From Heptranchias perlo (taxonomy: Eukaryota), in NCBI RefSeq assembly GCF_035084215.1, contig NC_090357.1, positions 8,246,001 through 8,310,000 of the forward strand: a stretch of 64,000 bases of DNA, written 5' to 3'. Shown here one piece after another: positions 19,296 through 42,580 of this stretch. Made by a program: the position numbers and the translations under genes. Numbering within the stretch: the stretch's first letter is position 1; each line of letters starts with the position of its first letter. The notes beneath the pieces are model-generated. The model made no database searches. It worked only from the letters and a program-made list of their open reading frames with translations, and was not told the DNA's origin.

Positions 19296-22069
19296 GAAAG
19301 GAGTGAATAGTTTCATTCACAATTCACCTGCAGTGCTGAAACTCCCTCTCAATCATGTTTCTCCATCTGCGTTACTTTAATAAGTGATTTAATTTAGTCC
19401 AATATTCTTAGGCCAGAAATTCCATCAGCTGATCCAGTTGTGGAGGTGGCTTTCATTGGTACCTAGTTCTCCCTGTACCAATTGATACCACCTTCTCCCA
19501 CTCCTGTATTCAATTGCTTACATGGGTTATTAGTAACCTTGTGGCCACAGTGTGGTGATGCATCATACTGATTCACCAGCCTATAGCTGCATGAAATGAT
19601 GGGACATTACATCGGCGATCCTAAATCATTGAGTGTCCCAGTTCAGTCTTGTCACTATGGGGAAGTGACTAATAGAAGTCAACCATTTCCTCACAAGATA
19701 GGAGAAAAAAATCAATGGGAGAGACATTCTTGAGTTATTCTCACGCATCACCTCATGAGTGGACACCTGGGCCAAATCTATTGTGAAGAACTGCTAAGTT
19801 TTAGAACTTTTATTATTTTGGAACAGACAGTCTAACGTTAATTGAAGGATTGCACTCTAATCTGACTCATTCTTGCTTCTGGTCTGATGAAACAGTCTTT
19901 CAATGTGGTATTATCCATCAGCCAGAGAAATCAGGAGGATATCCTGTGGTGTTCCCAGTCTATACCCCAACAGTAAAAGGCTCATTGTCTGCCTGAAGGG
20001 TGGAATCTGAGGTACTTTGCGTAGAAGGTCAAGTTTCATTGTGTTTGGTTGTTGCATTGAGCACAAGTAAAAATTAGCAGGAAAGAGCCTGGATCATAAT
20101 AATGGTGTCCAGACAGGGAATGACAAGAAAAATATTTGACCCTTACCCTCATAATTAAAAAGACGTAGCATTGTAATAAAAGGCTGATAGCAGCATGTTC
20201 TACTTAAGAATCTCTAAAAATGTAGAAATCGTTTCCCATTAATTTCTATAATATAAATTCATGCCTTTTTCTCTCATCATCTACACCATCAATGAACCAA
20301 GAGCTGAGTCCCTAACCAGAAAAAAAGTGCACAAGGTGTGCCATTTCACCTCTTTCTACGTAGATCTTAAATACCTGTCCTTAACCTCTCTATCTCAAAG
20401 TGTTCGAGGTGTGGCTGGCCCACAGTGTTGTGGTGACACTACTGCTGTCCACAAAGGAGAAGCAAGAAAGAAACTGAGAGAAATAACAAGAAGCACAATT
20501 AAAAAAAGAAGAAATAACTTTTTAAATGCACGTAGGTTTGGAAGTAAGCTTTTACATTCCCCATCTTTTTGCTTAGACCTGACACTAGTCTACTCCTCTT
20601 TAAGTCCTTTTCCCCCAATTTTTTCTCCTCCTCTGCTGAAGGCACATACACAATTCCACAATGCTGGTAAACCTCTGGTAACATAGCAAGTGGGCATTCT
20701 TCATTTGTGAGTCTATACATCGGGTTTGCAGGATATCCAACCATGCAAGGCGTCACAACTGAGCCCAATCCTATTGTCATTCAATGTCCAGTAGGGGTCA
20801 AACTTATGGAAAATGACGGACATAAAAAGACCTACTGGCTCATCTAGCCTGTCCCATATAATTGAGATGCCTTGTGGATCACAATACACAGGCTGCCCAC
20901 CCCACCCAGAGCCATGTAATCTCCTGGGAAAGGCAAAAAAACAAATAAAAACCCAGGCCGATTAGGGGGTAAAAATCTGGAAAATTACTCTCCGCCCCTC
21001 CCCCCCCCCGCCCCCTTGGGCAACCCCTTAGTCCAAGATACCACGGTAATGATTAGGCATTTGCTGATTTTCCCCTCCCTAGCCCAGAGCACTGGGGTTA
21101 ATTGTGACTTTCCAATGACTAGATTCAATAAGATCAGTCAACTCAGCACAGACCCTGGATCAAATCTGGGTCAGGACCACGTAGGCCATTGGGAGAGCTT
21201 TATGCTTTTATTTCTAAACAATAAATGACATAATCAGGACAAATATAACGCTGTAATTTTATTTAAAGCTTTTACATTATCTTTATTCTGTGCATTACAA
21301 ATTATATTTACACTACTGGCCATTTTCATTTACAATCAATTCAATATTAATATTAATGCAAAAATAAAAATGGAACTATTAAAATCCAAGTTATTAAGTA
21401 CTTTCAGAGACAAAAAAATTAGTATTTGGCTACTCACTTGGTCGATGTAATTTTACTTAAAGTTTTTACATTAGCTGGACAAATATTGCTCACTTTAGTG
21501 AACTATCTTTCTTATTGAGGCTCAAAAGTGGTCAGTTCTACGCTGCTTCTTGTCTATCTGACCAAATGTATCTTTGTATTACTATGTCTATAAGAGTAGA
21601 GAATAACAATTGTAACATCTGAAATTTTTTCTCTCTGTCTGTCTGTACCTCTCTTTCTTTCTTTTTCTCTCTCTCCATCTATCCCTCTCTCTCTAAGTAC
21701 CTTCTCCACGTTGGACGTTGGCACTCAGTGCTTTGCATACTTTCAAGCTTTTGTACAGGTGGATTAAATCAACCTCTGATGTTGCACATGCCCATTTCCA
21801 TCCCATCATCTCACCACATTTACCTTTGGCTGCCTCTTAATCGATGACTACCAACTTCTCCATACTTGACTACCCTAAGAAGTTTCCTTACTCATGACTC
21901 CTGAATAAAGTGGCCACAGTGGAGGAAAATGTTCTCTGAGTGCTAAGTATATCAAAATCGTAAATGTGTTAAGAACGAACCAAACACACAGAGGGAACTC
22001 ACCCTAGTATGTCATTGGTCTTATCACAATCGGGCTGATCACCTCTCTCTTTTAAGGAGCCTCTCATTC

Positions 22070-22440
22070 TTCTTGTCCATATTCATGCTTCTCCTGGCCC
22101 CACAAAAATCTCTAAATAAAAACTTGCACCTACCTTTTTTTGAAGGGCCTGCAGCAGTCCCTTTAAGGGCCGCTCATGGACCACTTTACGCCTGGTGCCA
22201 ATGGGTGGAGCGTGCATGATGCACGCTCCACCCATTGGTCCCTCAAGATTGTGTTGGAGTCCTACATACGTCATAGGACTCCAACTAGCATATTAAAAAT
22301 AGGCTCCCACCTGAAACAGGTGGGCACCCAGGCCCCACAAAAATGGCGGTAGCCTTATGGGGAGCATGAATGGGGCGGTAAGTGGTGCATTAACATTTTC
22401 AGATCCCACTGGGAGGGGGTCATGAAAATTGGCTCCCGAA
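22070..22440. mobile_element. GC-rich non-autonomous DNA transposon remnant (Harbinger-like)
   Basis: CpG-containing island with internal palindrome (ggagcgtgcatgatgcacgctcc); resembles other MITE-like pieces in the window. Confidence 0.4.
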
Positions 22441-22552
22441 TGCCTCCAGTGGTCCAATGGGTCACATCATTGAGGTTAAATTAAATGACAATTACTATAC
22501 CAGGAAGAAAATAAAGTTCTAATTTCAATTTTCCGTTATTACGAATTACAAT

Positions 22553-22945
22553 TTTATTCTATTGGTTCCAGATCTACAGATTTTGTGACATAATATGACA
22601 TCATCAGATTGGCCCAATGGATGTTCTGTGTTATGACATCAGTGGCTTAACAAACATTCATGAGTGACCAATAATTATCAATAGGGCAGCTCGTTCATGA
22701 AATAAATTTTGTCAGTGGTAAAATAAATAACAAAATTAACTTGTTCTTTCCAATTATTTGCACAGAAACTAGAATATATTTATATTAATTATGATTACCG
22801 ATGTAGAATGGGGACTGGTTACAAAGATCTTTCACATTATGATTGGTTTGAAGTTTAATTTGTCGTCTCTGTCCCTAATTAATCTCATTAGTGTCATAAT
22901 CCATCAATTAACTTTAAGGCCATTATGTTTCTTTCAATTTTGTGG
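22553..22945 (-). other. gene A 3'UTR ending near AATAAA (22553-22558)
   Basis: polyA hexamer about 390 nt after the stop; highly similar to 32206-32600. Confidence 0.6.
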
Positions 22946-23405
22946 TCAAACTTCTGACTCAGAGATAAGTTTTCTGATTTCATGAACCCCAGGTGAAATG
23001 GATTTCCTCAGGTTTTCAACTCCTTCAGTGATTGTTCCTTGGAATAAACCAATTAAAGGATTGAAAATCTTTTGAAATTTCTCCATTTGCTGGTTAAGAT
23101 CTTGCTGCCACTTTTCTTCAAAAGTCTGATTGGAATTAATAGGCATTGTGTTCAGATTCCATTGGCTAATGTTTTTCTCCAACATCTTTAGCTGTTCGAC
23201 AAAGGACAAGAGTTCGCTCTGTTTGGAAGTGTCTTCAATTGTTCCTTGGAACTGTCCAAAAAGAGACGTCATTTTCTCTTTGATAATGTCAGCCTGCTCC
23301 TTAACATTTATGCCAAAAGTTTCCATTTTCTGTTGCAATTCTCTTGTCAAAGGGGTCACGTTCTCCATTGCATTTTCAAAAATGGTACTTACATTTTGGA
23401 TTTCC
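22946..23405 (-). CDS. gene A last coding exon
   Basis: ttttctcctccacag acceptor; part of ORF 22946..23497; aligns to the last exon of gene B. Confidence 0.86.
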
Positions 23406-26400
23406 CTGTGGAGGAGAAAAACATATAAAGTGAGGTCTGTACATTTGTAGATCTCTGCTTCTTCAGTCTTTTTCTTGGTGCAGAGATTGTACAACATGAA
23501 GCCAATGGAATAGAAATGTTATTTCTGGAAGATGCTGTAATAATTTGCTGGTCTTTGCATTTTGGCTACCCAGTTGGGAGAGACTGGTAGGATACAATTG
23601 CTCTTGTAAGGGCAGCAAACTGAGCAACAAAAATGATTCCTGACATCAGAAATTTAATTGTTAAAGAAAGAAAATTGGTGGCCTTGGTTTTTTGACTTTG
23701 ATGTAACCAAATTGAAGCTTTTAAGCTTATGAAGGGAGTTAACTAAAAACCGATCCACATAAATGGCTCACATTCAAGGGGACACCAGATGAAAAATGAG
23801 GACGTTAGAAGGGATGCAATGAGAAGTGGGGAGACCATGTTGAGATTAATAGCCTTTTTCTATTCCTAAATATTCTGGTTCATTTTCACCTTTTTACCAG
23901 GTATTGACTATTGATTAATCACTTGTTGAAATTACTGGAATTGTATAACTATGTTAACAAAATGCAAACTAATATGTCACAGTAAAGAAAATGTAAAGTT
24001 AACAATGATCTAAGAATGACCTGGTCACATATTAGATGTATAAGGGGCCCTCTGAAAAAGCAGTAGATCAAGAAAAGGTTAAGAAAGCTGCAATTTTTGA
24101 GATGTAAACAGCATGGGTATAAATACAGGGGAAAGTGGAAAAAAATGCACAATTTGCAGGCTTGGAAAGCCAACAGGTTACCCTGGGCATGAATGAGAAG
24201 AGTTGAAGGACTGTTTGGATGGATGGACCCAGGCATGGGAAGTTGGAAATAACAGGCCATATGCATTGAATTAGGAAAAAGAGAAATATTGATTGGTTGT
24301 ATATATCATCAATAAAGATTAATAAAAGAAATAAGAAAAAGGAAATTTGCTGCCTGTTTCTCCCTCTGTTCTTGAGTCACATCAAAACCTAAACAAACCA
24401 TATAAGTTGTCAGCTGACTCTGCAACTTAGGAACTGACTGTGTTTTAGTCATACAGCAAGAGCTGAAAATCTCAACGCAGGACTAGAAAACACAACAAAA
24501 GAAAAACAGAAGAAATGTGTTAGAAAACGATGTGATCAGACCTTGTCGCGTTGCACATTGCTGCCTCACATTGCACACTACTCTTTTGGCAGGTTTAGTA
24601 GTGATATTACAATAGGAGATTAACTACTTACATTATTGGTTTGAAAGGTGCCAGAAAAGTTTCATTAATAACCCAGCCTTTGCTATTCCATCCATCGGCA
24701 TTCCCCCGCTCATCTGGGAGGGCACGAGTCTCAATTCCTGGTCATGAAAACAGACAAAAAAAAACTGTTGGTGTTTCTATACATTTATCTTAGCGATCAT
24801 GTGAATAACTACCTCACCCGTCCTCATTAACTATTTATATTCTCCCTGTAATCTGCCCTCCCCTCTTGGTGATGATGACACTTGTTGGGTCCAGTTCAAT
24901 TGGTTCTTACAGGCCTTGGTATATTACCCAAATGTCTATTCTTCATGTGTGAGCCCAGATTGTTTCACTGGACTACTTGACCATGGATGATATCACAACC
25001 CATTCTGATCCTGTCCTCACCCAAAGTCCTTGCATGCGCACTAACCAGGAGGGGTCACTGCAACAACAACACCTTGCATTTATATACAGCCTTTAACATA
25101 GTAAAACATCCCAAGGTGTTTCAAAGGAGGGTTATCAGACAGAAATTGACACCAAGCCAAAGAAGGAGACATTAGGACAGGTGACCAAATGCTTGGTCAA
25201 AGAGGTAGGTTTCATGCAGCGTCTTAAAGGAGAAGAGGCGGAGAGGTTTAGGGAGGGAATTCCAGAGCTTAAGGCCTAGGCAACCAAAGGCACGGCCATC
25301 AATGGAGGGATGAAGGAAGTGGGGGATGCACAAGAGCCCAGAGTTGGAGCAACACAGAATTCTCGGAGGGTTGTAGGGCTGGAGGAGGTTACAGGGATAG
25401 GGAGGGGCGAGGCCACGGAGGGATTTGAACATGAGGATGAGAATTTTAAAATCAAGGCATTGATGGATCGGGAGTCATTGTAGGTCAGCGAGCACAGGGG
25501 TTATGGGTGAACAGGACTTGGTATGAGTTAGGATGCGGGAAAGAGTTTTGAATGAGCTCAAGTTTATGGAGGGTGGAAGATGGGAGACCAGCCAGGAGAG
25601 CATTGGAATAGTCGAATCTGGAAGTAACAAAAGCATGGATGAGGGTTTCAGCAGCAGACGGGCTGAGGCAGGCACAGAGATGGGCGATTTTTCGGAGGTG
25701 GAAGTAGGCGGTTTTTGTGAGATAGTGATCAGTAGCAAAAGCCTTGATTAATTTTTCCTTTGCCTTATATTCTTGTTTAAATTTGGCCCACTCACATTTA
25801 CGCAATGGAATCTACAAATTGGAAATCTCACTATGCCAGATTAATATATTGTAGTGGTTTTTAATTATCCTGTATTATTATTTTCTGTTTTTATTTGTTC
25901 TGCTTGTGAACACAGGTGAGGGAGACAAATTGGGTCATCTTGCTCAGCCTTCCATAGAGACCTATAGTTCCCCTATTACAGCTTCTAATTGCCTCTTGAG
26001 TGATTTCAGAGTGTTTGTCTCCACTACCCTATCCAGAAGGCTATTCCAGATGTTTAGAAAACAACTCCAGGAGCGTATGTTAGAAAGAAAGATTTTGTAT
26101 TTACATAGTACCTTTCATGACCTCAGGACCTCCCAAAGTGAATGCCAATTAAGTACTTTTTCTGAAGTGTAGCCACTGTTCTTCAAATAACACTGTGGAT
26201 TCTTTTACATCCACCTGAGAGGGCAGACGGGACCTCAGTTTAACATATCATCCAAAAGATGGCACCTCCGATAATACAGCACTCCCTCAGTACTGCACTG
26301 AAGTGTCAGCCTAGATTATGTGCTCAAGTCTCTGGAGTGGGTCTTGAACGTACAACCTTCTGACTCAGAGATGAGAGAGCTACCACTGAGAGAGCCAAAG

Positions 26401-26473
26401 CTGACACCAAAAAAAGTTTTTGTGACATACCTTTCACCACAAACAGCATCAAAATAACCACAAATATCTTCAT
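22946..26473 (-). CDS. Highly divergent apoA-IV-like apolipoprotein (gene A), spliced: 26473-26431, 24737-24632, 23405-22946; 202 aa
   Basis: 609-nt open spliced frame: MKIFVVILMLFVVKG|IETRALPDERGNADGWNSKGWVINETFLAPFKPIM|EIQNVSTIFENAMENVTPLTRELQQK...ISESEV. Splice-site contexts are nearly identical to gene B. Confidence 0.82.
24632..24737 (-). CDS. gene A exon 3 (shortened, 106 nt)
   Basis: ttttcatgaccag acceptor; donor gtaagtagtta identical to gene B; phase 1 to phase 2 restores the frame. Confidence 0.8.
25061..25720 (-). mobile_element. L2 LINE 3' fragment in intron 2 of gene A
   Basis: AAETLIHAFVTSRFDYSNALLAGLP...KLELIQN; FKSLRGLAPPY; L2 tail. Confidence 0.85.
26090..26408 (-). mobile_element. 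DeuSINE, internally deleted
   Basis: Matches the 7070-7530 family. Confidence 0.7.
26431..26473 (-). CDS. gene A exon 2 (signal peptide MKIFVVILMLFVVK)
   Basis: atcATG start, G|gtatgt donor; acceptor tttgcag at 26494+. Confidence 0.85.
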
Positions 26474-28267
26474 GATGACCAGGTTCTCAACCTCTGCAAA
26501 GACAATGTAAGCTTTTAGATCCTGAGAATTCAATGACTTAATCATTTTATCAATGGTGACTTACGGACAACAAGACCCATATCAAGAAAGTGTGTAATCC
26601 GACTATCAATAAAGCCTTTTGATGGACAACCTGGAGAAGCATCACTTCCACCTTTCATTGGCAATGCTAAGTCAACAAGGAAGTCCCAGATCCTGGGGTG
26701 GTTGACAGACCCGTTTTTTAATTGTCTAACCCTCTCCCCATCTGTCTTCTTCATAGCTCCCAATGAGTTACACCCTACAGTTAAAACTACAGTTAAAAAC
26801 TACCACTAGTTTGGCATTTATTGGATCAAAAAATTACAATCTCATTCATAGAGGTCACTGAAATGGTAGCTGTAAAAAGATGAAAATTTTGCAGTGGTGC
26901 TGAAGGGAATGCACTTCTCAGGTTGGGGTTAAATTTCTACTCTACAGTTGGCTGGGCTTTACCAACTTGAAAGGGTTTTTGATGCTAACACTGGGTGCCA
27001 AAATTGGGGGAAAGTATTTCATTCCCTAGCACTTCTGATTTTCCAAAATTCTAGTGACAGCATCTTTATCTAAGGCCAAGTTGATCAATTCATATCTTTC
27101 TCAAAGTGTCAGGAAGACAAGAGGAATCTGCTGGACAGGGATGATTAAATAACTTGAGCATTTCTACCGACAGGGTCATGTTTATTGTACTGATAACAGA
27201 TAATGACATAGCAATGATTGCGAAAAGAATACACACTGCAGGCTTGTTTAAATACAGAAAAATCAAGAAGAATCTGCTCATTTTCAACAGTTACGGAAAT
27301 TAAATTTAGAAAGTGTCTTTGTTTAATATCACATAAGAATGTGATTGGGATCCAGGTTGTGTGATGTAGTAGATCAGAGCCCTGTCATTTTATCTCTGGG
27401 ACCCGGGTTACAATTTGGCCCAGCTTGATGTGATGAAAGTCTCGTCTCTGTGATTGCTGAAAGGCTCCTGCACCATATTCAATTCAGTTCCCAACTGGTG
27501 GAAAATCTCTGCAATTCAAAATTTAAGTGCATTCATGGGCAACGCAGAGATAGTCTAACCGTTCTATATTATGAATGAAATCTGAATTCCTTTTCTTAAA
27601 TCCTTATCAAAATGGTACAAGAAAGCACTGCCTTTGACAGATGCAAATATTAATATCTAAATTTGAGATTCACATCAATTAGCTTGTTTGAATTTTATGA
27701 AGTGTAGGATTTTGAAGTAATTTGCTTCACTTCATTATGCTGGAGGTAATCAAACCTGTAATGGAGCAACACGATTGATAGTTTTTAAGCTCAACGCTGT
27801 CAGTTTTCACCAAGGTGTATATAAATAAATAGTTAATTGGCTCATGAGTCTTTGATCATTTACTCAGTATTTACTTATTGAAATCCATAATCTCATGCCA
27901 TTTTCTTCACTACATTTTTGTTGCAGATAAAAGTTTAATTTTCACTCTTATTTTCATTGCAGCCAAAATTTAGTTTTTGTTATTGAACACAAGCACTGGT
28001 CACTTCAGTATAAATTTCCAAAGTTTCTAATAGGTGACCAGATTTTGTTTCTTCTTTTCCCAATTTTCCCTCTTCTTGTGAAGGCGCTGCCCCCAGGGGA
28101 AGTACAGTACCTCAGGTAATGGCTACCCTCTCGCCCGTGACCCCATTTCAAAGTTGGCAGTGAACGTCAGCAAGGTGTTCAACCACAAGGAGCATCACTG
28201 ATCAGCCCGATCCTGTCCTCAACAGACGCCCACATATGTGCACTACTAGTACACAGGAAGGGACATG

Positions 28268-28430
28268 AGAACATAAGAACACGAGTAGTACATTTAGCCC
28301 TTCGAGCCTGTTCCACCATTCAATGAGATCATGGCTGATCTGTGACCTAACTCCATATACCCGCCTTAGCCCCATATCCCTTAATACCTTTGGTTAACAA
28401 AAATCTATCAATCTCAGGTATAAAATTAAC
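28268..28430 (-). mobile_element. CR1 3' tail
   Basis: gagcctgttccaccattcaatgagatcatggctgatctg, also seen at 4993. Confidence 0.75.
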
Positions 28431-28724
28431 ATAATGATTAGGAAGAGAATCCTATGTGATTTTATCCCCCCTTGATAGAGCAGGGACATTGAGAGCAATA
28501 GTAACGCCCTAACATCAGTGCAGGGATTGAATCTGGCACCTTCCTGGTCAGTACGTCTCAGTAAAATACCAGACGTTAGTTTCTGAACCATCAGCAGAGC
28601 CAAGCAAAATTTCCTGTGAGCAAAGTTGTTCATCTGGTCACCACCAAAGAAAACTGTGCTCCATTTTAACTACTTTTCATGCACTGTTGATTAATCCTGA
28701 AAGAACATCAGAAACATTTCTTAC

Positions 28725-29070
28725 TTGCCTCAGTTTAGTCCGCCTGCTTTCTCTTGAATCTGGTTTCCCAACCTCACATCCCTGATATTTATTAACCTGC
28801 TCTTATCTATTCCATCTGATAAGGAAAAGAACAGTAAACTGTACAGAGTTGGGTTATTTCTTTGTTTTTATTAGGATCAAGGATAAAGATTTTTGACCTT
28901 TCAGTGTTTGAGAGTAGCAAATATAACGTCGAACAAAGTCACCAGCTGACGTTGGTCTGATGGTGCACACAAAATACAATCTAATTAAACAGAAAAGCCA
29001 ATTACCACTGTAGTTAATTTTATCTGTGTCTGGTTGTAAAGCTGTTGTAAGCAGCTCTGTCCTTGGAATC
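28725..29070 (-). promoter_or_regulatory. gene A non-coding exon 1 and promoter
   Basis: Donor CAA|gtaaga at 28725/28724; TTAATAAATA at 28786-28795; GATA sites at about 28802 and 28816; tgacctttca and caaagtca motifs; colinear with 42270-42580. Confidence 0.7.
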
Positions 29071-29365
29071 ATACAGCAGGAATTCTCCTGATCCCAGCGT
29101 GGTGCATGAGAAAGGCATTGGGATTGGATTTAGTTGGAGGAGGATAAGGTCACAGGCACGAGCAGACATTCAGTAGATTGCCCAAAATGACCATTTATGT
29201 GTGAGCCTAGACACCACAGGCTATCTGGTCATGGAGGGCATCACAGGTAAATCCAATACTGTTTCTGGTCAACATCCACACACAGCAAAAATCATGGGAA
29301 TTGACCCAGAGTAGGATCTCTGGCTGATTTTCACCAACCCAGCCCAAGGGTGCTGAGGCCAACTC

Positions 29366-31190
29366 ATAGTATCATAGTAGGTACAGAACAGGAGGAGGCC
29401 ATTCGACCCATCGTGTCTGTGCCAGCTCTTCGAAAGAGCTACCCAATTAGTCCCATTCACCTGCTCTTTCCCCATTGCCCTGTAAATGTTTTCCCTTCAA
29501 GTACATATCTAAATCCCTTTTGAAAGTTACTATTGAATCTGTTTCACCACCATTTTAGGCAGTGCATTCCAGATCATTACAACTTGCTGCGTAAAAAAAT
29601 GTTTCCTCATGTTGTTTCTGGCTCTTTTGCCTTAAATCTGTGTCCTCTGGTTACCGAACCTTCTGCCACTGGAAACAGTTTCTCCTTATTTACTCCATCA
29701 AAACCCTTCATGACCTTAAACATCTCTATCAAATCTCCCCTTAACCTTTTATGTTCTAAACCCCAACTTCTCCAGTCTCTCCACATAACTGAAGTCCCTC
29801 ATCCCTGGTACCACTCTAGTAAATCTCTTCTGCACCCTCTGCAAGGGCTTGACATCCTTCCTAAAGTGTGGTGTCCAGAATTGAATATAATACTGCAGCT
29901 GAGGCCTAAACAATATTTTAAGCTATGCTCTCTGCCTCTACAAGAAGATCTCCTTTTTTGTCCCCAATTGGTCCCACCCTTCCTTTGACTACCCTTTTAC
30001 TATTTACATGTTTATAAAAGACTTTTGGGTTCTCTTTTATGTTAGCTGTTAATTTATTCTCATATTCTCTCTTTGCCCCTCTTATTCCCTTTTTTAGATC
30101 TTCTCTGCTCAGCCAGGTTCTCTACTGTATTATGAACCTAACATTTGTCATTTTAATCTCCATATCTTTGGTCATTCAGGGAGCTCTAGCTTTGGATGCC
30201 CTTCCTTTCCCCTCGTAGGAATGTGTCTACTCTGTACCTGAACCAACACCTCCTTGAAGACCTCCTATTGTTCAGTTACTGTTTTGCCTACCAATTTTTG
30301 ATTCCAATCCACCAGGGCAAGATCCATTTTTAACTCACTGAAATTTGCCCTCCTCCAGTTAAGCATTTTCATATTTGCTTGTTCCTTGTCCTTTTCCATA
30401 ACTATTCTAAATCTAATGATATTATGATCACTGTTCCCCAAATGCCCCCCAACTGAAACATGCTCGCCTGCTCCTCTGCATTCCCCAGAACTAGATCCAG
30501 CACTGTTTCCTTCCTGGTTGGCCTGGAAACACACTGTTCCAGAAAGTTCCCTTGAACACATTTCAGGAATTCCTCCCCCTCTTTGTCCTTTACACTGTTA
30601 CTGTCCCAGTCTATATTGGGATAATTGAAGTCCCCCATTATCACTACTCTATAGTTCTTGCATCTTTCTGTAATTTGCCTGCAAATTTTCTCCTCTATCT
30701 TCTTCCCACTATTTAGTATACACACAGTAGCGTAATAGCACCTCTATTGTTCCTAAATTCTAACCAAATAGATTCTGTCTTTGACCCCTCAACTCCATCA
30801 TCCCTTTCCAGTGCTTTAATAGCTTCTTTGATCAATACTGTCAACCTCCTTCCCCTCGCCCTCCTGAATATCTTGTTGCCAGGAATATTAAGTATCCAAT
30901 CCTCCCTTTCTTTGAGCCAGGTCTTAGTTATTGCCACCATATCATAGTCCCATGTGGTGACATGAGCCTGCAGTTAACCAACCTTATTTACCATGCTGCA
31001 TGCATTTATGAACATTCACTCTAAACTCATCTTAGATTGTCTTGCATTTGCCCCCTGGCTGATCCCTTGCCTTTCTGAACTATTCTTTACTCTAGTGGTA
31101 CTTGTCACTCCCAGTCCTCTGTGCACCTTGTTTCTCCTCCCTAATGTTTCATCCTGGTGCCCATCCCCATGACAAATTAGTTTGTGGACA
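29366..31190 (-). mobile_element. CR1 LINE, internally deleted, with endonuclease and 3' portions
   Basis: VAITKTWL...ESIWLE; VVIMGDFNYPNIDW; LDLVLGN; HLGNSDHNIIRF (APE endonuclease) and CR1 tail. Confidence 0.85.
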
Positions 31191-32205
31191 GTATCATATT
31201 GGACAGTGTATTTACCAATGCAGCATCTAGGGAGCTTTAAGCTCTTACTTTTAAACAACAACTAACATGCTCAGGACAAATAGTTACATCTGCTTCTGAC
31301 CACAATCACTTTTATTCTGTGTATTACGATGAATACAGTACATAAGCTATTGAGCACTTTCAAACATACATTTGTAACCTTTGATTACATTACAATAATT
31401 CAACATTCCTATTAATGTTAAAATATAAATACAGTCACTAAAATGTAAGCATCTCAAGTTGTTACATATCTTTGGAAAGAACAAAATTAGTGATATTATT
31501 TATCAGTAATGGATGAGATGATTGGGTTTGTTTTACATACTTATATGGCCCTAACAATTTGTAAATATTTTTTCAGACCTGACAAGGACAGAGAGGATTA
31601 CGACTGGAATATACCCTTGTACCCTTTTCCAATTGGCTGCTGGCATATTTCTATCATCTGATGGGATTGCTGAACAAATATTTCTCCTTCAGTGAATTAT
31701 ATTTATTATTCTGGCTCGAAAGGACTCAACTGCAAGCTGCAAGATGTCTGTCTGACCAACTGCCTCTTTATATCATCCTATCGGTAAGATTGGGCAATAA
31801 CTACTGTAATATCTCAACTGCTCTCTCTCTCTCTGCCTTTGTGCCAGTGTACTCCATATTTTCTGATCTCTGTAAAGAAGGGTTCGATGAGCCATGATGT
31901 TACACCTGCCCAGTCCGTCACCTCATCCAACCACATTCATTTTTATCTGCCTCTTGAAGTATTGCCAAACTTTTTCAGACAGTAACAACCTTGAAACCCT
32001 TTCCAGTGACTTCCAAATAGCATGCCATCTTCTGATCATAATGAACCTCCACATTTTTCTCTTAAGTCAGTTCAAGAACTTCTCATTAAGGCAATTAATT
32101 TTCATCATGTGACGATACCACCAGAATTCATACACCACCAGTTCCAATTGCAGACAATTTCCAGGGACATGCAAAATGAGCCTTTAATATTATTTATTAA
32201 GAATT

Positions 32206-32600
32206 TTTATTATTCTACTTATATGTCATTGGTTCCAGATTTGCATTTTTTGTGACATAATTTGATTAGGGGCATAATATGACATCATCAGATTGGCTAA
32301 GTGGATGGTCTGTGTTATGACATCACAGGTTTAACAAACATTCCGGCGTCAACAGGAAGTGTCAATAGGGCAGCTCATCCACGAGCTAAATGTTGTTGGT
32401 TTTTAAAATAAATAACAAAATTGTTTAGCTCATGCCAATTTTTGCCTCAGCAACTGGAATATATTTATATTAATTATAAATACCGATATGGAATGGGGGC
32501 AGGTTGCAAAGGTCTTTCACATTATGATTGGTTTGAAGTTTAATTTGTATTCTCTGTTCTTAATTACCCTCATTGGTGTCAGAGCCCATCAGGCACGCTT
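32206..32600 (-). other. gene B 3'UTR ending near AATAAA (32206-32211)
   Basis: Paralogous to the gene A UTR, with a polyA signal at the equivalent position. Confidence 0.6.
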
Positions 32601-33099
32601 TTAAGGCGCATCTGTAGGCAATGGTGCTTCTCTCCATTTTGTTAATAAGGCTTCTAATTTTTTGAAGCCCTCCTTGGTCTCATGAACCATGGGTGAAAGA
32701 TATTGCCTCAGTTCTTCAATTAGTTCACTTATTTCTTCACGGAGTTCCTCAGTGGAAGGAGCAGCTTTCTTGTACCATTCCTCCAGTTGGTGGGTGGCAT
32801 CCCCATATGACTGATTGAAATGATCAGTTATGAGGCTTAGGTTCTGACTGTACTGACGAATGTCTTTGTGGAGCATCTCCAGTTTCTCGTGAATGGCGGC
32901 AGTTGTTTCGTTGCCAATCGCTTCATGCAGCTGTTCGCCGACAGAAGTCAGCCTGGCATGGACCAAATTAGCCTGTGTTTTAATATGATCACTGATGGAG
33001 ACCCCCTTCCACTGGAGCTCTTTAGTCAAAGAGGACAGGTCTTTCACTGAATTTTCAATCATGGCATCGAGATTTCTATTAGTACTTGATAGCTTTTCC
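32601..33099 (-). CDS. gene B last coding exon
   Basis: ttttccctccacag acceptor; extends ORF 32601..33062; amphipathic helices. Confidence 0.88.
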
Positions 33100-36000
33100 C
33101 TGTGGAGGGAAAAAAATGATATAGTGGAGTTTGCATATTTTACATAGATTTACATAGAATCTACAGCACAGAAACAGGCCATTTGGACCAACTGGTTTAT
33201 ACTCCACATGAACCTCCTTCCACTTTAATGATCTCTTCCCACCCTGCCCCCATATCCCTCTATTCCTTTCACCTTCAAATATGCATCAAGCCTCCCATCA
33301 AATACATCAATGCTAGCTGCTTCATTGATGTTATCTTTTGTACATCTCTCTGCCTCTTTATTCCTTTCTTGATACAAATACACAAGAGGACACACAGCAT
33401 CTAACCAGTGAAATAGCATAGAATGTGTAATAATTATTTATTGATCATGTTCGAGCTATCCTATAAGGAGAGACTGGTCGGATATTATTGTTCTTGAGAG
33501 GGCAGTGAAGTGAGCAACAAAGATAATTTGGATTATTAGAAAGTTGGTATGAGCAAAGTTAGCTGCACATCTTATCTTTGATTTGGAGGTGACCTCATTG
33601 AAATTTTCACGATAATGAGGGGAATTGACAAACTTCATCCAGGTAAATTTCTTCATTATGGTGAAGGGGTCAAACATTATGGGACACAAGTTCAAAATTA
33701 GAAACGTGAAGGAAAGTCAGGTGGAGCTTTTTTACTTTAAAAGCAACTAGACCTGTGAGCTGTGTTACTGGGGAAAGCCATTGAGATGTGCAAGAGAAAG
33801 TTAGATTCACATCTGAGAGAGAAGGGATTGAGGGATTTGGTGAGAAGGTACAGGTATGGAAAAGGAGTGGGTGTGTTGGGCCTAATGGCATTTTCCCGTT
33901 GCTAAATACTCTTATCTTCCGGTAGAACTTCATTTGTGATCCAGCACAATGTAATCAGGATTTAGGGCTGATTCCCAATGGGCTTTCCTAGTGCTCTCAG
34001 GGAGCCTAGTCAAGAAATGGTGGGCCCACAGCTCCATTCATTAAATGGACGGGAAATCAGGGACTGCGGGTACAAACTCACCTGACTGGTGCTCCCTGTC
34101 ATTGGGGAATCAGACCTCTTGTGTACATCCCCCAGCTGACTTACATTACAACAACAATAACTTGCACTTATATAGCGCCTTTAACGTGGTAAAACATCCC
34201 AAAGCACTTCACAGGAGTGTTATCAAATAAAATTTGACACCAAGCCACACAAAGAGATATTAGGACAGGTGACCAAAAGCTTGGTCAAAGAGGTAGGATT
34301 TAAGGAGTGTCTTAAAGGAGGAGAGAGAGGTAGAACTAAAGCCTGAAGATAGCTCCTTTGATAGTTTTAATAGCTGGTAGTTGGTAACTACTTACATAGC
34401 TGATTTGGCCACATCAGACTGCTCCAAAATTCCAACAGCAATCTGGGCTAAGTCATTGCCTATATTGAGCAAGTCCCAAAAAGGCTGCTGCCAGTTTGCC
34501 GATTTGTTGGATTTGGATTCATCCTTGGGGATGACACCACCCTGGGTTCCTGGGCAAGAACATAGAAAAAAGACTGTTTAGTGATGCCTTTTATGCATGA
34601 TTGTTGTAAAGATCATGTGACTAGCTACTTCATTACTAATTTGTATATTTTCCCCTCAGCCTCCTGTCTTCCTCTTCCAGACTTGACATTTGCTGCAGTA
34701 CAGGTCAACGGGTGCGTGCAGCCGGACAGTGTTCTCACCCGTGGTCTCCATACACACACCTTCCAGCAGAGGGCACTGAATAGTAATGCGGCAGAAGCTC
34801 TGGCTGATTTTCCTCTCCCTGGCCCGTGGTTACTGAGGCCAATTCTTGTGTCCCAACTGTTATTCACACATTTCTGACACTAACTACAATGAGCAAGTAT
34901 ATCCACCTCACAGAAACATCTCAAAGTGTTTCACATACAACTAATTAATTTTATGTAGGGAAATGCGACAGCCATTTGGTGCACAGCAAGATTCCACAAA
35001 CAGCAATGAGAAGAATCAAGACATCAGTACATTTTGGATGATCACGGTTGAGGGAGGAATGTTGGCTAGGACACTGGGAAAACCCGTAACTTTTCCTCAG
35101 ACAGTGCCGTGGGATCTTTGAGCTACCAAAACAGCCAGGGTGTCAGTTTCAAGTCTCATCCAAAGGACAGCAGCTCTGACAAGGGAGCAGTCCCTCCCCC
35201 ACACCAGTGTCAAAAAGTAATTTCACTGCAATTTTTTTTTGAAGATAGCCTTAGTTAAAGGAGAAATGAAGATCCACATTAAAGAGATTACGGGATTGTG
35301 CAGCTTTAATTCTGAATCACTTCACAGAAATGACTCTAACATGGAAAAAAAAGCAGCATTCAATCTATGATTACATAGAATTACATTGAATTTACAGCAC
35401 AGAAACAGGCCATTCGGCCCAACTGGTCTATGCTGGTGTTTATGCTCCACACGAGCCTCCTCTCACCCTATTTCATCTAACCGTATCTGCATATCCTTCT
35501 ATTCCTTTCTCCCTCATGTACTTTTCTATCTTCCCCTTAAAGGCATCTATGTTATTCACCTCAACTACTCCACGTGGTAGCAAGTACCCCAATCTAACTA
35601 CTTCCTGGGTAAAGAAATTTCTCCTGAATTCCTTATTGGATTTATTAGTGACTATCATATTTATGGCCCCCAGTTTTGGACTCCCCCACACGTGGAAACA
35701 TCATCTCTACGTCTACCCTATCAAACCTCTTCATAATTTTAAAGATCTCCAGCAGGTCACCTCTCGGTCTTCTCTTTTCTAGATGTATAATAATTTTCAC
35801 TTTATTGGGCATCATTTTAGCACCCGCTATCAGGTGCGTTCCTAGCCGGGGGGGGGCTCCGAAAATCGGGGAATCCCGGAGTGGGACCGGAGCCCGGCTC
35901 CAACCCGCCCACTTCCAGGTTCCCCACTGACGCGCCGGCGTGCGCGCGCAGCCTCCGCTGGTGGGAATCCCGCAGGCAATTAAGGCCAGCGGGATGCCAC

Positions 36001-38531
36001 TTGAAAGTTTTTATGTTGCTCGTTCAGGTCGTTTACAGACCTGATTGAGCTGTTTTATTAGGAGGGGTGGGATTTTACACTGAACTGAGACTGTTTCCCA
36101 TACTGGGGGAAATACTCCCAGTTCAAACGGAGGTGTTGCAGCCAGCAGCCTGTGGCAGCTGCAAAGGTGCATTCGACAGGTGGCCACTCCGTCACATTGG
36201 ACAAAGTTTGGCCTCCACCACCCTCCTCCTAACAAGAAAATGCATCGACCTGGAACCGCAACCCCGGTGTGAGGACACACTTACTTACCTTGCGGACCCC
36301 CTCAGATGTACATCTTCCAGATGGGGGCCGCCGTAGCTGCAGTCATGACCTCCTCGGAGGGCAAACAGCATCACCAGCCTCGCCGTCCACGCCATCCACC
36401 TCTGACACGTGGAGCTCCACAACAGAGTGCAGTGACACATCCACCTGTACAGCAGGAGGGAGGGCAACCGCAGAGAGAGATGCGTCGCAGAGGGCACTAC
36501 CCTCGCCACAGGGTCCATAGACCGAGGCTCAGCTTCCTGGACCTCTCTGAGCAGCAGTGCACACGGAGGCTCAGAGTCACTCGATATGTAATCGTGGACA
36601 TCTGCAGCCTCCTTCATGCCGAGCTGCTCCCGGCTGGCCCGAGCACCATCTTCTTACCTGTCGCTCTCAAAGTCACCACTGCCCTCAACAACTTCTCCTC
36701 CGCATCCTTCCAGTGTGCCACCGGGGACATCGCTGACGTCTCTCAGTCGTCTGCACAAAAGAGCCCTGCAAATACACCTACACCCACTCTGCAGTGACAC
36801 AATGGGTGGCATCAGTTGTGGGTCTTCATAGTGATCCTCAGGAAAGGGCATTATTGCACAAACCAGACAAGATTCGCAAAGACGTGGCAGTAGTGGTGCC
36901 AATATAATATGTTATGTGAGTTGGTCAGAAATTCAATATAAGTAAAAACCATGACAAACCCTCAAACACCCTTGTGCATCCCCTTCATGCTCACGACACG
37001 TTTGCCTTACGCTTCCTACTGCACATATGTGATGCATGACCTGTGGCTGCAGCACAGGTAGTGGCAGGTTGAGTGAGGCTGACCGTGAAAAAGATGCACG
37101 AGAGGGTGAGTATGAGATAGAGCCATGAGATTGTATGAGGATTGGGTTGAGTGGTAGTGGCGGGATGAGTACTGGCGAGGTGAGTAAGTACAGGTAAGAT
37201 GAGGATGAGGTTTGAGTCGGTATGAGGGGTGATGTGACAGAGTAGTGTTGGCAGTGCAGAAGGAGGTGTGGGGTGGGGGCGGTGATGTGGCAGATGGAGT
37301 GTAGGGGAATGAGTAAGTGTACTCACTTTGGCTGACCTACTGAGGTCATTGGAGCACCTCCTGCACTGTATGCAGGTGCGTGATATGTTGGTGGTGGTGG
37401 TGACCCCCTCTGCCACCTTGAGCCAGGCCTTCCTGGTGGCAGGGGCAGGCCGCTTCCTCCCGCCCGCCGGGGGGGAAGATCTCTGTCCTTCCCCTCCTCC
37501 TCACCCCATCTATTGATACCTGGAGTGAGGCATCATTAAACTGGGAGCAGCCTTCCCCCTGGGCTGCTCCATGCTGTAATTTTTTCTATTTGTTGCAGCA
37601 TCTGTCAATGGAGGACTGCCCCTTTAAATAGAGCTCCTCCAGCTGACAGATCTTACTGCGCATGCGCAGCCTGCCCGACGCGCAGACCAGCAGTGGGGAA
37701 CCCAGAAGACCAGGTAAGTGGATCCAATTGGACTGCGATCGTGCGGGTGGCTGACTAATTTCACCGGGCGCGTGGGTGCCCCCCGCCGCGAACCCGCAGC
37801 CCTGCTAACATCGAGCCCATTATGTCTGTTCACATTTAGAGATGTTAGTCAAAGTCACACCATTAGCTAGGCTCACAGTCTGTGGTCCGGCAGTTGACCA
37901 TTTAGCAGGTTGCCCCCAGTCTAACTGGATCACTTGCTCGGTGGCCATGTTCCCATGACTTTACCAAGGCCATTTTAAGTTGGCTGTGCAAGAGTTGCCT
38001 GAAGAGGGGCCTTTGTTCAACTTCAACTGGTCCAATTTAATAACACAGCTGAACTCAATGGATAACGGAATGGAAAAGAGCTCCATTCTCCAGCACTAAT
38101 AACCTTCACCATGGCGAATGGATGGGGGCAGGCAACAGGGAGCTTTACTTTGCATCTGGGTCATTCCATTCTGAGCTGGGATTGCTCAATGCTGACTTAT
38201 AGTGCAAAATGCGGATAAATGATTGACCCCAGTACTGATGTCACTCACCTGTGGGAGAATCGAGTTGCGTTCTGCCACTCAGTGATGTAGGACATTGGTG
38301 TTCTAAAACTCTGCACTGCCTACGTTCTTATTTATAAAACTCAAGTGTTCCCCGCGCAACACAGACAATGGAATGTACAAACTGAAAGTCTCTCAGTGTG
38401 ATATATTGCTGTGGTTTTCACTTTTCTTTATTATTGTTTTATTTTCACTGTTCTGCTTATGTTAGTTGGAAGGGCTTGTGTTACATACCTTTGACCACAA
38501 GGAGCACCAAAGTGACTGCAAATATCTTCAT
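32601..38531 (-). CDS. Divergent apoA-IV-like apolipoprotein (gene B), spliced: 38531-38489, 34549-34396, 33099-32601; 231 aa
   Basis: 696-nt open spliced frame: MKIFAVTLVLLVVKG|TQGGVIPKDESKSNKSANWQQPFWDLLNIGNDLAQIAVGILEQSDVAKSAM|EKLSSTNRNLDAMIENSVKDLSSLTKELQWK...LPTDAP. Intron phases match the apoA-I/A-IV/E family; FWD...EQS motif typical of the family's exon-3 block. Confidence 0.85.
33140..33320 (-). mobile_element. CR1 3' tail in intron 3 of gene B
   Basis: EAASIDVFDGRLDAYL; catagaatctacagcacagaaacaggccatt tail. Confidence 0.7.
34148..34333 (-). mobile_element. L2 3' end
   Basis: Same tail as 10200 and 25061. Confidence 0.75.
34396..34549 (-). CDS. gene B exon 3
   Basis: ttcttgcccag acceptor, gtaagtagtta donor, 154 nt, open frame. 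Confidence 0.85.
35372..35783 (-). mobile_element. CR1 3' fragment
   Basis: NKSNKEFRRNFFTQEVV...DAFKGKIEKYM. Confidence 0.8.
35807..37818. mobile_element. PIF/Harbinger DNA transposon (internally deleted) in intron 2 of gene B
   Basis: Imperfect TIRs gggcatcattttagca / tgctaacatcgagccc with 3-bp ATT duplication. Plus strand carries a Harbinger transposase N-terminus (36306-36797: LSEQQCTRRLRV...LKVTTALNNFSSASFQCATGDIADVSQSS). Minus strand carries a Myb/SANT-like remnant (about 37328-37572: KAWLKVAEGV...RTCIQCRRCSNDL). Confidence 0.85.
38489..38531 (-). CDS. gene B exon 2 (signal peptide MKIFAVTLVLLVVK)
   Basis: gtcATG start, G|gtatgt donor; acceptor tttacag at 38555+. Confidence 0.85.
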
Positions 38532-40736
38532 GACGGTGTCAGGTTCTCAAATCTCTGTAAAGGCAACACAGGTTTTCAGAACTAGAGAACTGAATGGATA
38601 CAATCATTACATTTAGAGTGGTTTTTGGAATATAGTATTCATTACCAACTGTACAAAGAAGACATAGGATCAAATTATTAATAACATTTATTGTTCAGTC
38701 TGCTCGAGTCACTGGATTCGCACTACCTCCACCTCTCATAGATAATGAGAAGTCAGCAAGGGTGTTCCCAGGTCCTGGGTAGTTGACAGATCTTTTTTTT
38801 ATTCTCCCCGCCTCCCAAACCCATCTCATTCTTATAATCATTCTTAAACGTTCCCTTTTCTTCTCACCCTTTTAGTTCTTCAGATCTTTCTTTCTCAGCG
38901 CACCAAAACTGCGGAACTTCCTCCCTCCCTCGGTCTTCCCTTCTTTCATAAATCATCAGGCTTTTAAAACTCAAGCTTGGCCTCACGTAATCACCAATTC
39001 CTGGTGTTTACTCTTTCAAACCTTGTGTCAGGCCTCCAACATTGTTCCTTGGACTCTCTATTTAATAAAACATTACAGAGAATGCAAATAGGTAAAAGTA
39101 CAAGAAAGCATTCTTGTTTTTTGCAGCTTCTGACATCTCTTAGTTGTTTTACAGGCTGCCTATTTCCTTCATTTGAATTTGACTGACTGCTTGCTGTAGA
39201 AACTGAGTCCAAATCCACCCCAGACTGATAGGATGAAAGCCTTGCTCTCTCTGCCTCTCTCTGTTGTTTGTTAAGGGTTCTATGTGAAAGAAGTTTGGGT
39301 AACTTCAGCCCACCCTCCTACTAGGAAGCAGCCCACTGTACTGAAAGCTTCCTCCTATTTTCTATTCAATGGCACAAAAATTAGCAATCGTATTCAGACA
39401 GGCCATGGGAAAGGCTGTTGTGAGAAGTGGGAATATTCACAATGGAGCAGCAGAGGTTTGCCTGAGATTGGATTATTGGAGCAGAGTAAATGGATATTTT
39501 CTGCAGTTGACTGTTCTTCTACTGACCTGAATGCCTCACCCTGACACTGGGCGAGAACATTTTGGAAGAAGTGTTCCATTCCCTAGAATTGCCTACCGTC
39601 GCCGATTGAGGTGAATAAGCTGCCGATCTTCCAAAATTCTAGTAAGAGGAGGACTATCCAAGTGGTCTACATCCGTACCAATCAGTTGTCAAATAGCAGA
39701 CCTTGTGGATTCATTACTGACTAGAACTAACAAGCGGTCAAGTTAATAGGTTAAACTAGTGATACCAGATGGAAAGTGGGGCACAAAATAAAAATTGGGA
39801 CTAAGAAGGAAAGTCAGGTGGAAATTTTTCACCCACATCCCAGCCCAATAGAACTGTGGAATAAGTTACCAGGGAAGGCCCTCTAAACATATGGTACAAA
39901 AGGGATCAAGAGAGAATAGGATGCGTTTCTGGAGAAAGAATGAATTGGCGGAGCTAACTGCTGATAAAGAGACAGGGTTGTTAGGCCCTATTGGTCTTTT
40001 CTTGTTCCTAAAGATCCTTGTGTCATATATAACTTCCACTCTCCCTCCAGACCAGTGTAAATGTTTCAGATTGATCAGTTCAAACTTTCTCAAAGTGTCA
40101 GGAAGTTATTCTTTCTGGTCACTTTACTGGACATTGGTTGGAACCCTCTGAAAGATGGTCATTTTTACCGAAAAGACTACGTCTATTGTACTGGCTGCCG
40201 ATAAGAATTATTGTAAAAAGAATACACACAGCAGGCTTTTAAATATAAAAAATTTGCAAGGAACCTAAACATTTTCCACAATTACTAAAATTAAATGTCG
40301 AGAAATATAATTTTTGAACTGACGTTTAAAGGATGCCTTTTTTAAGCCTAAGACCAATAAATTTATTTATGCTTGGTGACAGTAATTCCAGCAAAAACAT
40401 ATGCAAGCAGATTCATATATTGCTCCTGTACCTGCTCAGCATCAGGTCTTTGTGATTTAGTGGATTAGCACTGTTCCCTTTTACCTCTGGGTTTAAATTC
40501 AGCCCAGACTGATGTTATGAGTCTTGTGTGGATTCACAGTTGCATGTATCTCAGAACTAGTTGGCACTAACTTGACAGTCTCAATCAGAGAAGCTGCAAC
40601 AATGGCTGGTGCAGAAAACTGAAATGTTACAATGACGCAGGGCAGAGTTGTTTCCCTGAGTTGGAAGATGAAGCATGCTCCTGGGCAGGGATAACTTCAC
40701 ATTCCAACTGTTCCAGGCAACACATAACCTGAACCA

Positions 40737-40995
40737 AAAGCAAAATACTACGGATGCTGGAAATCTGAAATAAGAACAGAAAATGCTGGAAATACTCAGC
40801 AAGTCAGGCAGCATCTGTGGAGAAAGAAACAGAGTTAACGTTTCAGGTCGAAGACCTTTTGTCAGAACTGGAAGAAGTTAAAGATTTAACAGTTTTTAAG
40901 CAAGTACAGAGCCAGGGAAAGAGGGGGAGGAAGGGGAGGGGAGGAAAGAACAAAAGAGAAGGTCTGTGATGGGGTGGAGGGCAGGAGTGACCTGA
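40737..40995. mobile_element. Penelope-like element end
   Basis: aaaatactacggatgctggaaatctgaaata..acagaaaatgctggaaatactcagc..gtcaggcagcatctgtggag, recalled as a common shark repeat terminus. Confidence 0.6.
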
Positions 40996-42269
40996 ACCCT
41001 GAGTTTCTTTTCTTAAATCCTTAGTAAAATGATGCAGAACACTGCAGTTACAAGGTGTGTTTATGCTGCAGATACCAGTCTGAGACTGACAGCTTACCAG
41101 TTTAGACTGACTGGCTCCAGAGAGGTGTGTGCTTGTTTACAGGCAAGTGCAGAACTCCCAGTTGTTAGGAGTTACTCAGAGTGGGAGGGTCTGCAATCTC
41201 TAAATATTAAATTAACAATGGGTCAGCTCAGGAGCCCCAGTGAACCCATGGTGACTTTTATCACCAGAGTTGACATCACACTAGATTTACAGCCCATATG
41301 ATGTCCAAACTCAAGTGAAGTGAGAATGCCTCCTCCAGGAACTCTCACACCACTTCCCTCCGGAGATGGGTCAGGACCTGACTCCGCAGTTATACTGCAC
41401 CTTTAGTATTGCTGTGAAGCAGGAGCTGCTTTTTAGTCACACTAACATTGCCTTATGAACAAACCCTTAAAATCTAATATACATTTCACATGAAATTAGT
41501 TTGTTTGCATTTTTTTGAAATGCAGAAATTCAACCTAATTCATTTCTTGTTGGAAACGGTCAAATCTGTAATGGAACAATCCTCAGCCGGAGTAACGTGA
41601 GCTGTTGTCACAAATTGATCCTATGATGACCTACAAAGAATCAACTGAATATAAATAATCACCATTTTATTCACTACATGCCCTCTAAAATGTTGATTCC
41701 ATCCATCTATCTATATAGATAGGTAGTTGGATAGATAGATAGATCTATAATAGTTTGGGATACATCCACTACACTTCAGGCATCACACTGTGTCAAGTGT
41801 GCAAATTTCTTTGTCACACTTCAAAAATAGTATATAAAAAAAGAAAGCCGGTCATTTCTTCCAGGTTTCAGAGGAGCTTCCTCAGCAGCGGAGAATATCC
41901 TCAATTGACCTCAGCATCTGTCTACTTACCGCAGTAAGACTTGCGGTCTTAAAGGGACAGGCCACCAGGAGTGGGAATCCTGGAAGGTTTGTCCAGGGAT
42001 GATGATGACAATTGTAGTGCCATTGTCACTGTGCTGGCTCAGACTAACTAACTCAACACAGACCAGATATTGGACCAGGGATTGACCCAGTCTATGTTGC
42101 TCGGTGTCACACTGGACATTTAGCCACAGAACCATCTGGGAACCCGAGCAAAATTGGATATCAAAAAAGGCTGTTCATTGGACCATCACTGGAGAAAGTT
42201 TTCATATCATTTTACTAGTTTTCTTGCACTGCTGTCTAAACCTCAGAGAACACGAGAAACATCTCTTAC

Positions 42270-42580
42270 CTGGCTCAAATTAGTCCTCCTGCTCCCTGTA
42301 TGTCTGCTTTCTGAATCCTCAGACTGCTGAGGTTTATTAACTGATATTATCTGTCACATCTGATAAGGAAAGGAACAGTTAACTGATTTGAGTTGCTTTT
42401 TTCTTACATGTGGAGGCATAGGATCAAGGATCAAGATTTTTGACCTTTCAGTGTTTGTGTCTAGCAAACATTAACAGAATGTTGAACAAAGTTACCAGTT
42501 GATATTCATCTAATTAAACAGTGGTCAATTGTATCTGTGTCTGGCTGTAAAGTTGCTGCAAACAGCCCTGTCCTTGAGAG
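42270..42580 (-). promoter_or_regulatory. gene B non-coding exon 1 and promoter
   Basis: Donor CAG|gtaaga at 42270/42269; TTAATAAA at about 42333-42340; paired GATA sites; tgacctttca nuclear-receptor half-site; TGTTTG FOXA-like site; colinear with 28725-29070. Confidence 0.7.

Follow-up and report, generated by a model that had tools for sequence, protein, structure and literature searches.

A pair of apolipoprotein genes behind APOA1 in the shark Heptranchias perlo, apparently members of an undescribed elasmobranch subfamily

Three apolipoprotein genes in the window

The stretch of DNA analysed here, called the window, comprises 64,000 nucleotides (nt) from the shark Heptranchias perlo (G000:C36:8246001-8310000) and carries three apolipoprotein-type genes, arranged as C, B and A, all of them on the minus strand. 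Genes A and B are the main subject and apparently represent a real, undescribed apolipoprotein subfamily of elasmobranchs. The exon models give proteins of 202 (A), 231 (B) and 262 (C) amino acids. The translation of gene A is identical in every letter to the RefSeq-derived protein P0002 and that of gene B to P0001, and both frames are intact; the last exon of gene C matches the 262-residue protein P0063 at 100%. In the source annotation, A is “uncharacterized” and B and C are “apolipoprotein A-I-like”. The units of A and B are paralogous and collinear. In the pairing of the units and the intactness of their frames, a preliminary description of this DNA was correct.

A and B have the gene plan of exchangeable apolipoproteins: a non-coding exon 1 (deduced from the sequence), a signal exon, introns of phase 1 and phase 2 and a long last exon. 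In gene A, the promoter and exon 1 lie at 28725..29070, with a donor after 28725, a TATA-like element at 28786-28792 and motifs that we take to be GATA and DR1/HNF4-like sites. The promoter assignment is based on an A-B distance of about 0.20, a 69% match to the gene C promoter over 90 nt (E 7e-8) and a motif scan, in which GATA and DR1-like motifs are common to the A, B and C promoters. Exon 2, encoding the signal peptide (26431..26493, ATG at 26473), and exon 3 (24632..24737; 106 nt, shorter than that of B) agree with P0002. The coding part of exon 4 (22946..23405) encodes a predicted four-helix bundle with four of the five N-X-S/T sequons of the protein and is followed by the proximal 3′ untranslated region (UTR; 22536..22945, AATAAA at 22553-22558).

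Gene B is laid out likewise, with the promoter and non-coding exon 1 at 42270..42580 (donor after 42270), exon 2 with the signal peptide at 38489..38554 (ATG at 38531, in agreement with P0001), exon 3 at 34396..34549, the coding part of exon 4 at 32601..33099 and the proximal 3′UTR at 32191..32600. Intron 3 (33100..34395) is removed exactly at GT..AG in a contig from run X1 that is otherwise identical to gene B, and X4, whose sample is shared with X1, shows the identical joint; these contigs cover exons 3 and 4. The spliced joint fits RNA, although the RNA status of X1 and X4 is a guess and the evidence concerns gene B in one sample. To this extent, splicing of the last intron of gene B agrees with the exon model. 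A search of sequencing runs listed none with a match that is recorded as RNA, a blank that counts neither for nor against. The X1 contig extends 1008 nt past 32150, which suggests a long 3′UTR for gene B. The conserved “downstream” blocks of A (21195..21850) and B (31232..31955, AATAAA at 31311-31316), 69-83% identical to each other, are therefore probably distal 3′UTR, their collinearity within the contig being unseen.

At the protein level, the best Pfam family for A and B is PF01442, at E 1e-5 and 2e-8, under the cut-off: the last exons score 26 and 34 bits against 90. An HHalign comparison with gene C gave 96.5%. The hydrophobic moment exceeds that of shuffled sequences by z 2.2-7.0 in 23 of 23 family proteins, an amphipathicity at the level of apoA-I. 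The score at lag 22 is negative in six of six A/B proteins and positive in five of five canonical ones, and lag 11 persists; the 22-residue spacing remains only C-terminally, and the proline-punctuated 22-residue repeat is not found. By homology, gene plan and amphipathic helices, A and B can be placed in the exchangeable apolipoprotein A1/A4/E family, and they are not in decay.

Each of the 23 family proteins has 2-6 sequons, while 27 of 29 canonical apolipoproteins have 0-1 and the other two at least 2. Several positions are kept: N65 in 10/10 and N54 and N128 in 7/10 A-type proteins, and N129 in 9/11 and N29 and N152 in 7/11 B-types. The sequons have no helix-face preference (24, 37 and 30 of 91). 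Conserved predicted N-glycan sites are unusual on an apoA-type protein. The AlphaFold model of gene A has four helices over residues 68-201 at a predicted local distance difference test score (pLDDT) of about 70. A structure search returned generic bundles (Z up to 11.1), with apolipophorin III at rank 50 (Z 7.6, root-mean-square deviation 4.3, 118 residues aligned), and Foldseek gave no match; the fold searches are uninformative. Matches of ESM features, useful as leads only, place apoA-I clusters on top for B (0.93) and give ApoLp-III (0.89) and LS-12 (0.82) for A.

Parentage and age of the subfamily

Gene C (55928..61200; coding sequence 59570-59609, 57174-57324 and 55928-56525, exon 1 donor after 60945) scores 130.6 bits against PF01442, above the Pfam cut-off, and groups with apoA-I at 97/88. 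The UBA exon of SIK3 (UBA_SIK3) is found at C36:8363905, about 57 kb upstream of gene C on the same strand; the human gene order is APOA1-SIK3. By tree and neighborhood, gene C is the APOA1 orthologue. It contains four cysteines; among the other complete apoA-I-like proteins that were counted, the number is 0-1. A and B fail as 1:1 orthologues of APOA1 because it is gene C that groups with APOA1 and adjoins SIK3. They also fail as APOA4, since that role is occupied by six close APOA4-type genes beside ZPR1 at C36:803-863 kb, 7.4 Mb from A and B, whose last exons of about 305 residues keep a strict 22-mer proline repeat.

The A and B promoters and the A exon-2 region align with gene C (E 7e-8, 2e-4 and 3e-11). 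The same regions give no alignment with a 20-kb APOA4 stretch holding the APOA4 signal exon, and at most 24 nt align with the apolipoprotein locus on contig C45. Because A and B sit behind APOA1 and share its promoter, they are likely to be APOA1 offshoots, by position and non-coding sequence, and the label “apoA-IV-like” given to them at the outset is out of keeping with the locus.

Two results weigh against an APOA1 origin. The protein tree rejects neither parent: the approximately unbiased (AU) test gives p 0.117-0.142 for APOA1 and 0.059-0.266 for APOA4 as the sister group. The phylogeny that the preliminary description had called for thus sets A and B apart as a clade and leaves their parent undecided. 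In addition, the best sequence match of the A/B family profile in the PDB is human apoA-IV (E 2e-22, summed over repeats), with apoA-I at E 3e-10, and some orthologues carry the automatic name apoA-IV-like.

Among known systems, APOA1 (gene C) resembles A and B in its adjacent position on the same strand, in a four-exon structure whose first exon is non-coding and whose introns have matching phases, in an alignable promoter and signal exon and in amphipathic helices. A and B are unlike it in being only 23-24% identical to gene C and 30-60 residues shorter, in falling below the PF01442 cut-off, in having lost the 22-mer except near the C-terminus, and in having several conserved sequons and fewer Lys and Arg residues. 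Lamprey LAL2, the fish type-IV ice-structuring protein LS-12 and insect apolipophorin III are, like A and B, short helix-bundle apolipoproteins, some of them co-opted for defence, and LAL2 binds lipopolysaccharide (LPS), according to the portion of the source available (PMC7431520). The LAL2 genes are intronless, unlike A and B, and no orthology is shown to LAL2, LS-12 or apolipophorin III.

Together, A and B form a clade of their own with 100/99 support, which supports the view, already put forward in the preliminary description, that the subfamily is not 1:1 orthologous to any named vertebrate apolipoprotein. A HMMER profile built from A, B and one protein of the zebra shark retrieved 52 representatives with E values of 0.001 or lower, 20 of which were looked up by name: 19 are family members and one is a teleost protein. 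The named species with family members are 10 sharks and 3 batoids; no chimaera is among the 20, and 31 further matches lie outside that set. A word-index search had found one relative of A and none of B or C, a limit of sensitivity that the profile overcame for A and B. In the protein tree, the A-types (11 rows) have support of 100/99 and the B-types (12 rows) 96/95. Since each type includes both sharks and batoids, the A-B duplication is, as far as this tree goes, older than the shark-ray split, which dates to about 250-300 million years ago. The initial idea of a subfamily specific to this shark lineage was accordingly too narrow. Heterodontus, Chiloscyllium punctatum and Rhinoraja each have two B-types, and in the mature region the identity of orthologues to the window proteins is only 28-57%. 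Database models P0004 and P0057 (Pristiophorus and Chiloscyllium) fuse B then A; they are probably annotation artefacts and confirm the tandem order. No account of the subfamily was found in the literature searched, which misses most subscription journals, such as those with older shark lipoprotein biochemistry, and six locus or accession ids matched no paper there.

The wider apolipoprotein complement has features of its own. The APOA4-type genes (L003-L008) consist of five near-identical copies, one inverted, and one shorter variant; the likeness may reflect recent amplification, concerted evolution or assembly duplication. ZPR1 lies with APOA4 at C36:0.8 Mb and SIK3 with APOA1 at 8.3 Mb, about 7.4 Mb apart, whereas the human APOA1-APOA4 cluster is contiguous. 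There is no APOA5-like gene among the Pfam matches. Two further apolipoprotein genes lie at C45:11608522-11634549; one (L010) clusters with an unnamed fish-type protein close to apoA-I and the other (L016) with apoE-like proteins at 99/96, in contrast to a statement, in the part of the source at hand, that cartilaginous fish lack ApoE (PMC6854765).

Divergence of coding and non-coding sequence

The protein sequences of A and B are poorly conserved, as had been noted initially: over 189 aligned codons they are 30% identical (57% at the DNA level), and exon 3 has 7% amino-acid identity. The positions 22772-22906 and 32457-32591, estimated earlier to differ at about 18 of 135 nt, have exactly 18 mismatches, and the whole proximal 3′UTR block is 82% identical over 319 nt, with only these two copies in the genome. 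After repeat masking, the A-B distance is 0.20 in the promoter and 0.21 in the proximal UTR (Kimura two-parameter). Aligned intron columns are 66-69% identical after the same masking, and shuffled sequence passed through the same aligner reaches 63-64%. Raw intron identity was therefore rejected as a distance. From the alignable fraction and score against simulated distances, a crude calibration, the intron distance is about 0.6-0.8.

Maximum likelihood (ML) estimates over nine fits give a synonymous divergence (dS) of 0.76-0.84, a nonsynonymous divergence (dN) of 0.63-0.87 and dN/dS of 0.83-1.04. One ML estimate of 0.93 has a profile range of about 0.55-1.55, the NG86 method gives 0.64 (0.41-0.95) and KA/KS across methods spans 0.57-1.04. 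The three codon positions are about equally diverged (0.52, 0.63 and 0.54 identical). Taken together, these rates describe a protein that has changed at a roughly neutral pace, neutral introns whose divergence is close to that of the coding sequence, and a constrained promoter and UTR. Between A and B, real conservation is confined to the promoter and proximal 3′UTR, at about 0.2 substitutions per site. Thus, the claim that non-coding sequence is better conserved than protein holds for promoter and proximal 3′UTR and fails for the introns.

Gene B was also compared with a relative, organism B, through contigs from runs X5 and X6 over window positions 32150-34600. The UTR differs at 19/410 positions (4.6%) and intron 3, the neutral yardstick, at 93/887 (10.5%), so that the UTR evolves at 0.44 of the intron rate (2.3 times slower, P 4e-4); this comparison shows constraint on the 3′UTR. 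The coding sequence differs at 53/435 and 59/433 positions (12-14%) in the two variants that organism B holds. With dS set to the intron rate, dN/dS comes to 1.2-1.4, and a value of 0.5 or less is rejected (P 2e-5). Ten listed coding changes comprise 7 nonsynonymous and 3 synonymous ones, and a 27-nt junction segment, counted by hand, adds about 7.5 and 2.5, giving about 14.5 to 5.5, the neutral ratio. The comparison supports a rate of the B coding sequence at or above that of the intron.

With gene A as outgroup, 20 UTR sites that differ between window B and organism B were sorted: A agrees with organism B at 11 of them, with window B at 6 and with neither of the two at 3. Because gene A sides with organism B at 11 of the 20, the pattern at these sites excludes A-B gene conversion since the two species split. 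Constraint accounts for the likeness of the UTRs, with no conversion in that period. A test of enrichment of organism-B UTR differences at A-versus-B sites was discarded as confounded by polarity.

In both runs, the depths of the two B variants of organism B are in a ratio of about 2:1. Their coding sequences differ by about 20%; both begin at an identical base and both overlap a single UTR contig of 410 nt, as in an assembly bubble. In one of them, 3 nt near 32651 are deleted in frame. Their private coding differences number 64/533 and 60/531 and they share only about 11, a count that rests on table ordering, with 40 of 195 difference rows shown. However the tree is rooted, one variant or both acquired changes at 11% of coding positions along a single branch, while the 10.5% change of intron 3 is spread over both branches. 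An even split of the intron change gives the variants an implied dN/dS of 2.6-2.8; assigning the whole of it to organism B gives 1.1-1.2. The variants may be duplicates whose UTR was converted, young duplicates that evolve very fast, or deep alleles.

Habu snake venom phospholipase A2 (PLA2) genes offer a parallel: in the sections of the source available, they too show stronger conservation of UTRs and signal exon than of the mature protein, KA close to KS and three codon positions about equally diverged (PMC7285919). A and B differ from them in that their introns are not far more conserved than their exons and their duplication is ancient. The snake-venom pattern proposed initially therefore applies only in part to A and B, and the organism B variant pair is the closer match.

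An inverted two-copy motif in both UTRs (22590-22650 and 32270-32330) is a fully conserved predicted hairpin without covariation. The two-sequence consensus fold of the UTRs is weak, with 3 compensatory pairs of 59 and no evidence of structure, and an Rfam scan of 21000-43000 gave 0 matches. Intron 2 of gene B contains a multi-copy GC-rich insertion (35806-37825) with further copies on C36, probably a transposon remnant. Elsewhere in the window, 11266-11917 is a tandem array with a period of about 40-80 nt.

Competing explanations and their meaning

The explanation favored here, with a rough probability of 0.5, is that A and B are intact APOA1-derived paralogues encoding secreted, N-glycosylated, lipid-binding plasma proteins that have been subject to episodic positive selection, with promoters and 3′UTRs kept under constraint. 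Episodic positive selection itself is likely, judging from the substitution rates. Expression in liver, gut and yolk sac would be under the control of the APOA1-type promoter, and the protein, freed of its signal peptide, would carry glycans at the conserved sequons. Away from lipid, it is predicted to form a short bundle of amphipathic helices, which would open upon contact with a lipid surface in the manner of exchangeable apolipoproteins. Having fewer basic residues and no 22-residue belt repeat, it would travel on lipoproteins or attach to foreign lipid surfaces, such as LPS or microbial membranes, instead of scaffolding a high-density lipoprotein (HDL) disc. Selection would keep the frame, the amphipathic pattern and the sequons, and other positions would drift neutrally, and faster after each new duplication.

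Several results weigh against this explanation. The A-B dN/dS is indistinguishable from 1 (likelihood ratio test at most 0.57), and the variation in rate from site to site is mild (gamma 3-4), which is what general relaxation would produce. In organism B, the gap between coding and intron divergence falls short of significance in variant 1 (P 0.35) and is borderline in variant 2 (P 0.10; 0.019 for exon 4 alone), and if all intron change is placed on the organism B branch, the coding excess of the variants vanishes (P 0.14 and 0.29). The narrow basis of the shared-difference count belongs here as well. The B branch of H. perlo itself is short, with about 1.8% coding change, is short in the protein tree as well, and is not in a burst. 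Finally, the structure models are all-helical but weak (mean pLDDT 48 and 60), that of B being poor.

There is a strong rival, which we consider possible without thinking it probable: A and B would be ordinary bulk carriers of lipid or fatty acid under relaxed constraint only. Amphipathic helices tolerate most substitutions, so that dN/dS nears 1 without adaptation, and the proteins would perhaps transport fatty acids in cartilaginous fish, which lack albumin and in which palmitate is bound on lipoprotein apolipoproteins, according to the text available (PMC13151045). An A-B dN/dS that cannot be told from 1, the mild rate variation and the neutral ratio of changes in organism B fit this rival. 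Other shark apolipoproteins look fast too: gene C was without relatives in the word search, and the nearest match of the apoE-like exon shares 56% identity with it. However, sequons, signal peptide and helix pattern are constrained, and an average near 1 would then need other sites above 1; moreover, the private coding change of the organism B variants (11-12%) equals or exceeds the whole two-lineage divergence of the intron. A reproductive protein, made in liver or uterus, linked to oestrogen like apoVLDL-II of birds, provisioning egg or embryo and diversified by parent-offspring conflict, would share the secreted, lipid-binding anatomy and the fast evolution, yet it is improbable, as both types are kept alike in what we take to be egg-laying and live-bearing species. 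Expression of apoa1 in the catshark yolk-sac membrane, reported in the excerpt available (PMC8923501), would agree with it. Least probable of all is an artefact in which gene conversion homogenized the UTRs and promoters of old paralogues with unremarkable coding rates. The single UTR contig shared by the two divergent coding variants of organism B is what conversion or recombination would yield, but the sorting of UTR sites and the slow UTR between orthologues speak against it, and the coding sequence still diverges at the intron rate or above it.

Such a pattern of change would fit a host-defence or partner-matching role best, a role in defence being the most speculative step. Defence is favored because of repeated duplication with bursts of change and because LPS-binding or immune-responsive apolipoproteins occur in lamprey and fish. 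In the accessible parts of the sources, apolipoproteins of fish, lamprey and amphioxus bind LPS and bacteria (PMC7431520), and a nurse-shark apolipoprotein shifts after immunisation (PMC9207270). A and B would then be glycosylated defence apolipoproteins of elasmobranchs, APOA1 offshoots released from HDL scaffolding whose targets would be lipid surfaces of microbes or parasites and whose diversification an arms race would drive; we regard this as a tentative proposal.

The locus adds a two-gene apolipoprotein subfamily that has been kept across sharks and rays and masked by “uncharacterized” or automatic names. A dN/dS near or above 1 is unusual in genes this old. If the defence proposal is true, the repeated B duplications would belong to the arms race, and the two forms in organism B would be toxin-like duplicates or balanced alleles like those of the major histocompatibility complex (MHC). 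A and B are concrete candidates for lipid carriage in albumin-less elasmobranchs and for the part that apolipoproteins may play in innate immunity.

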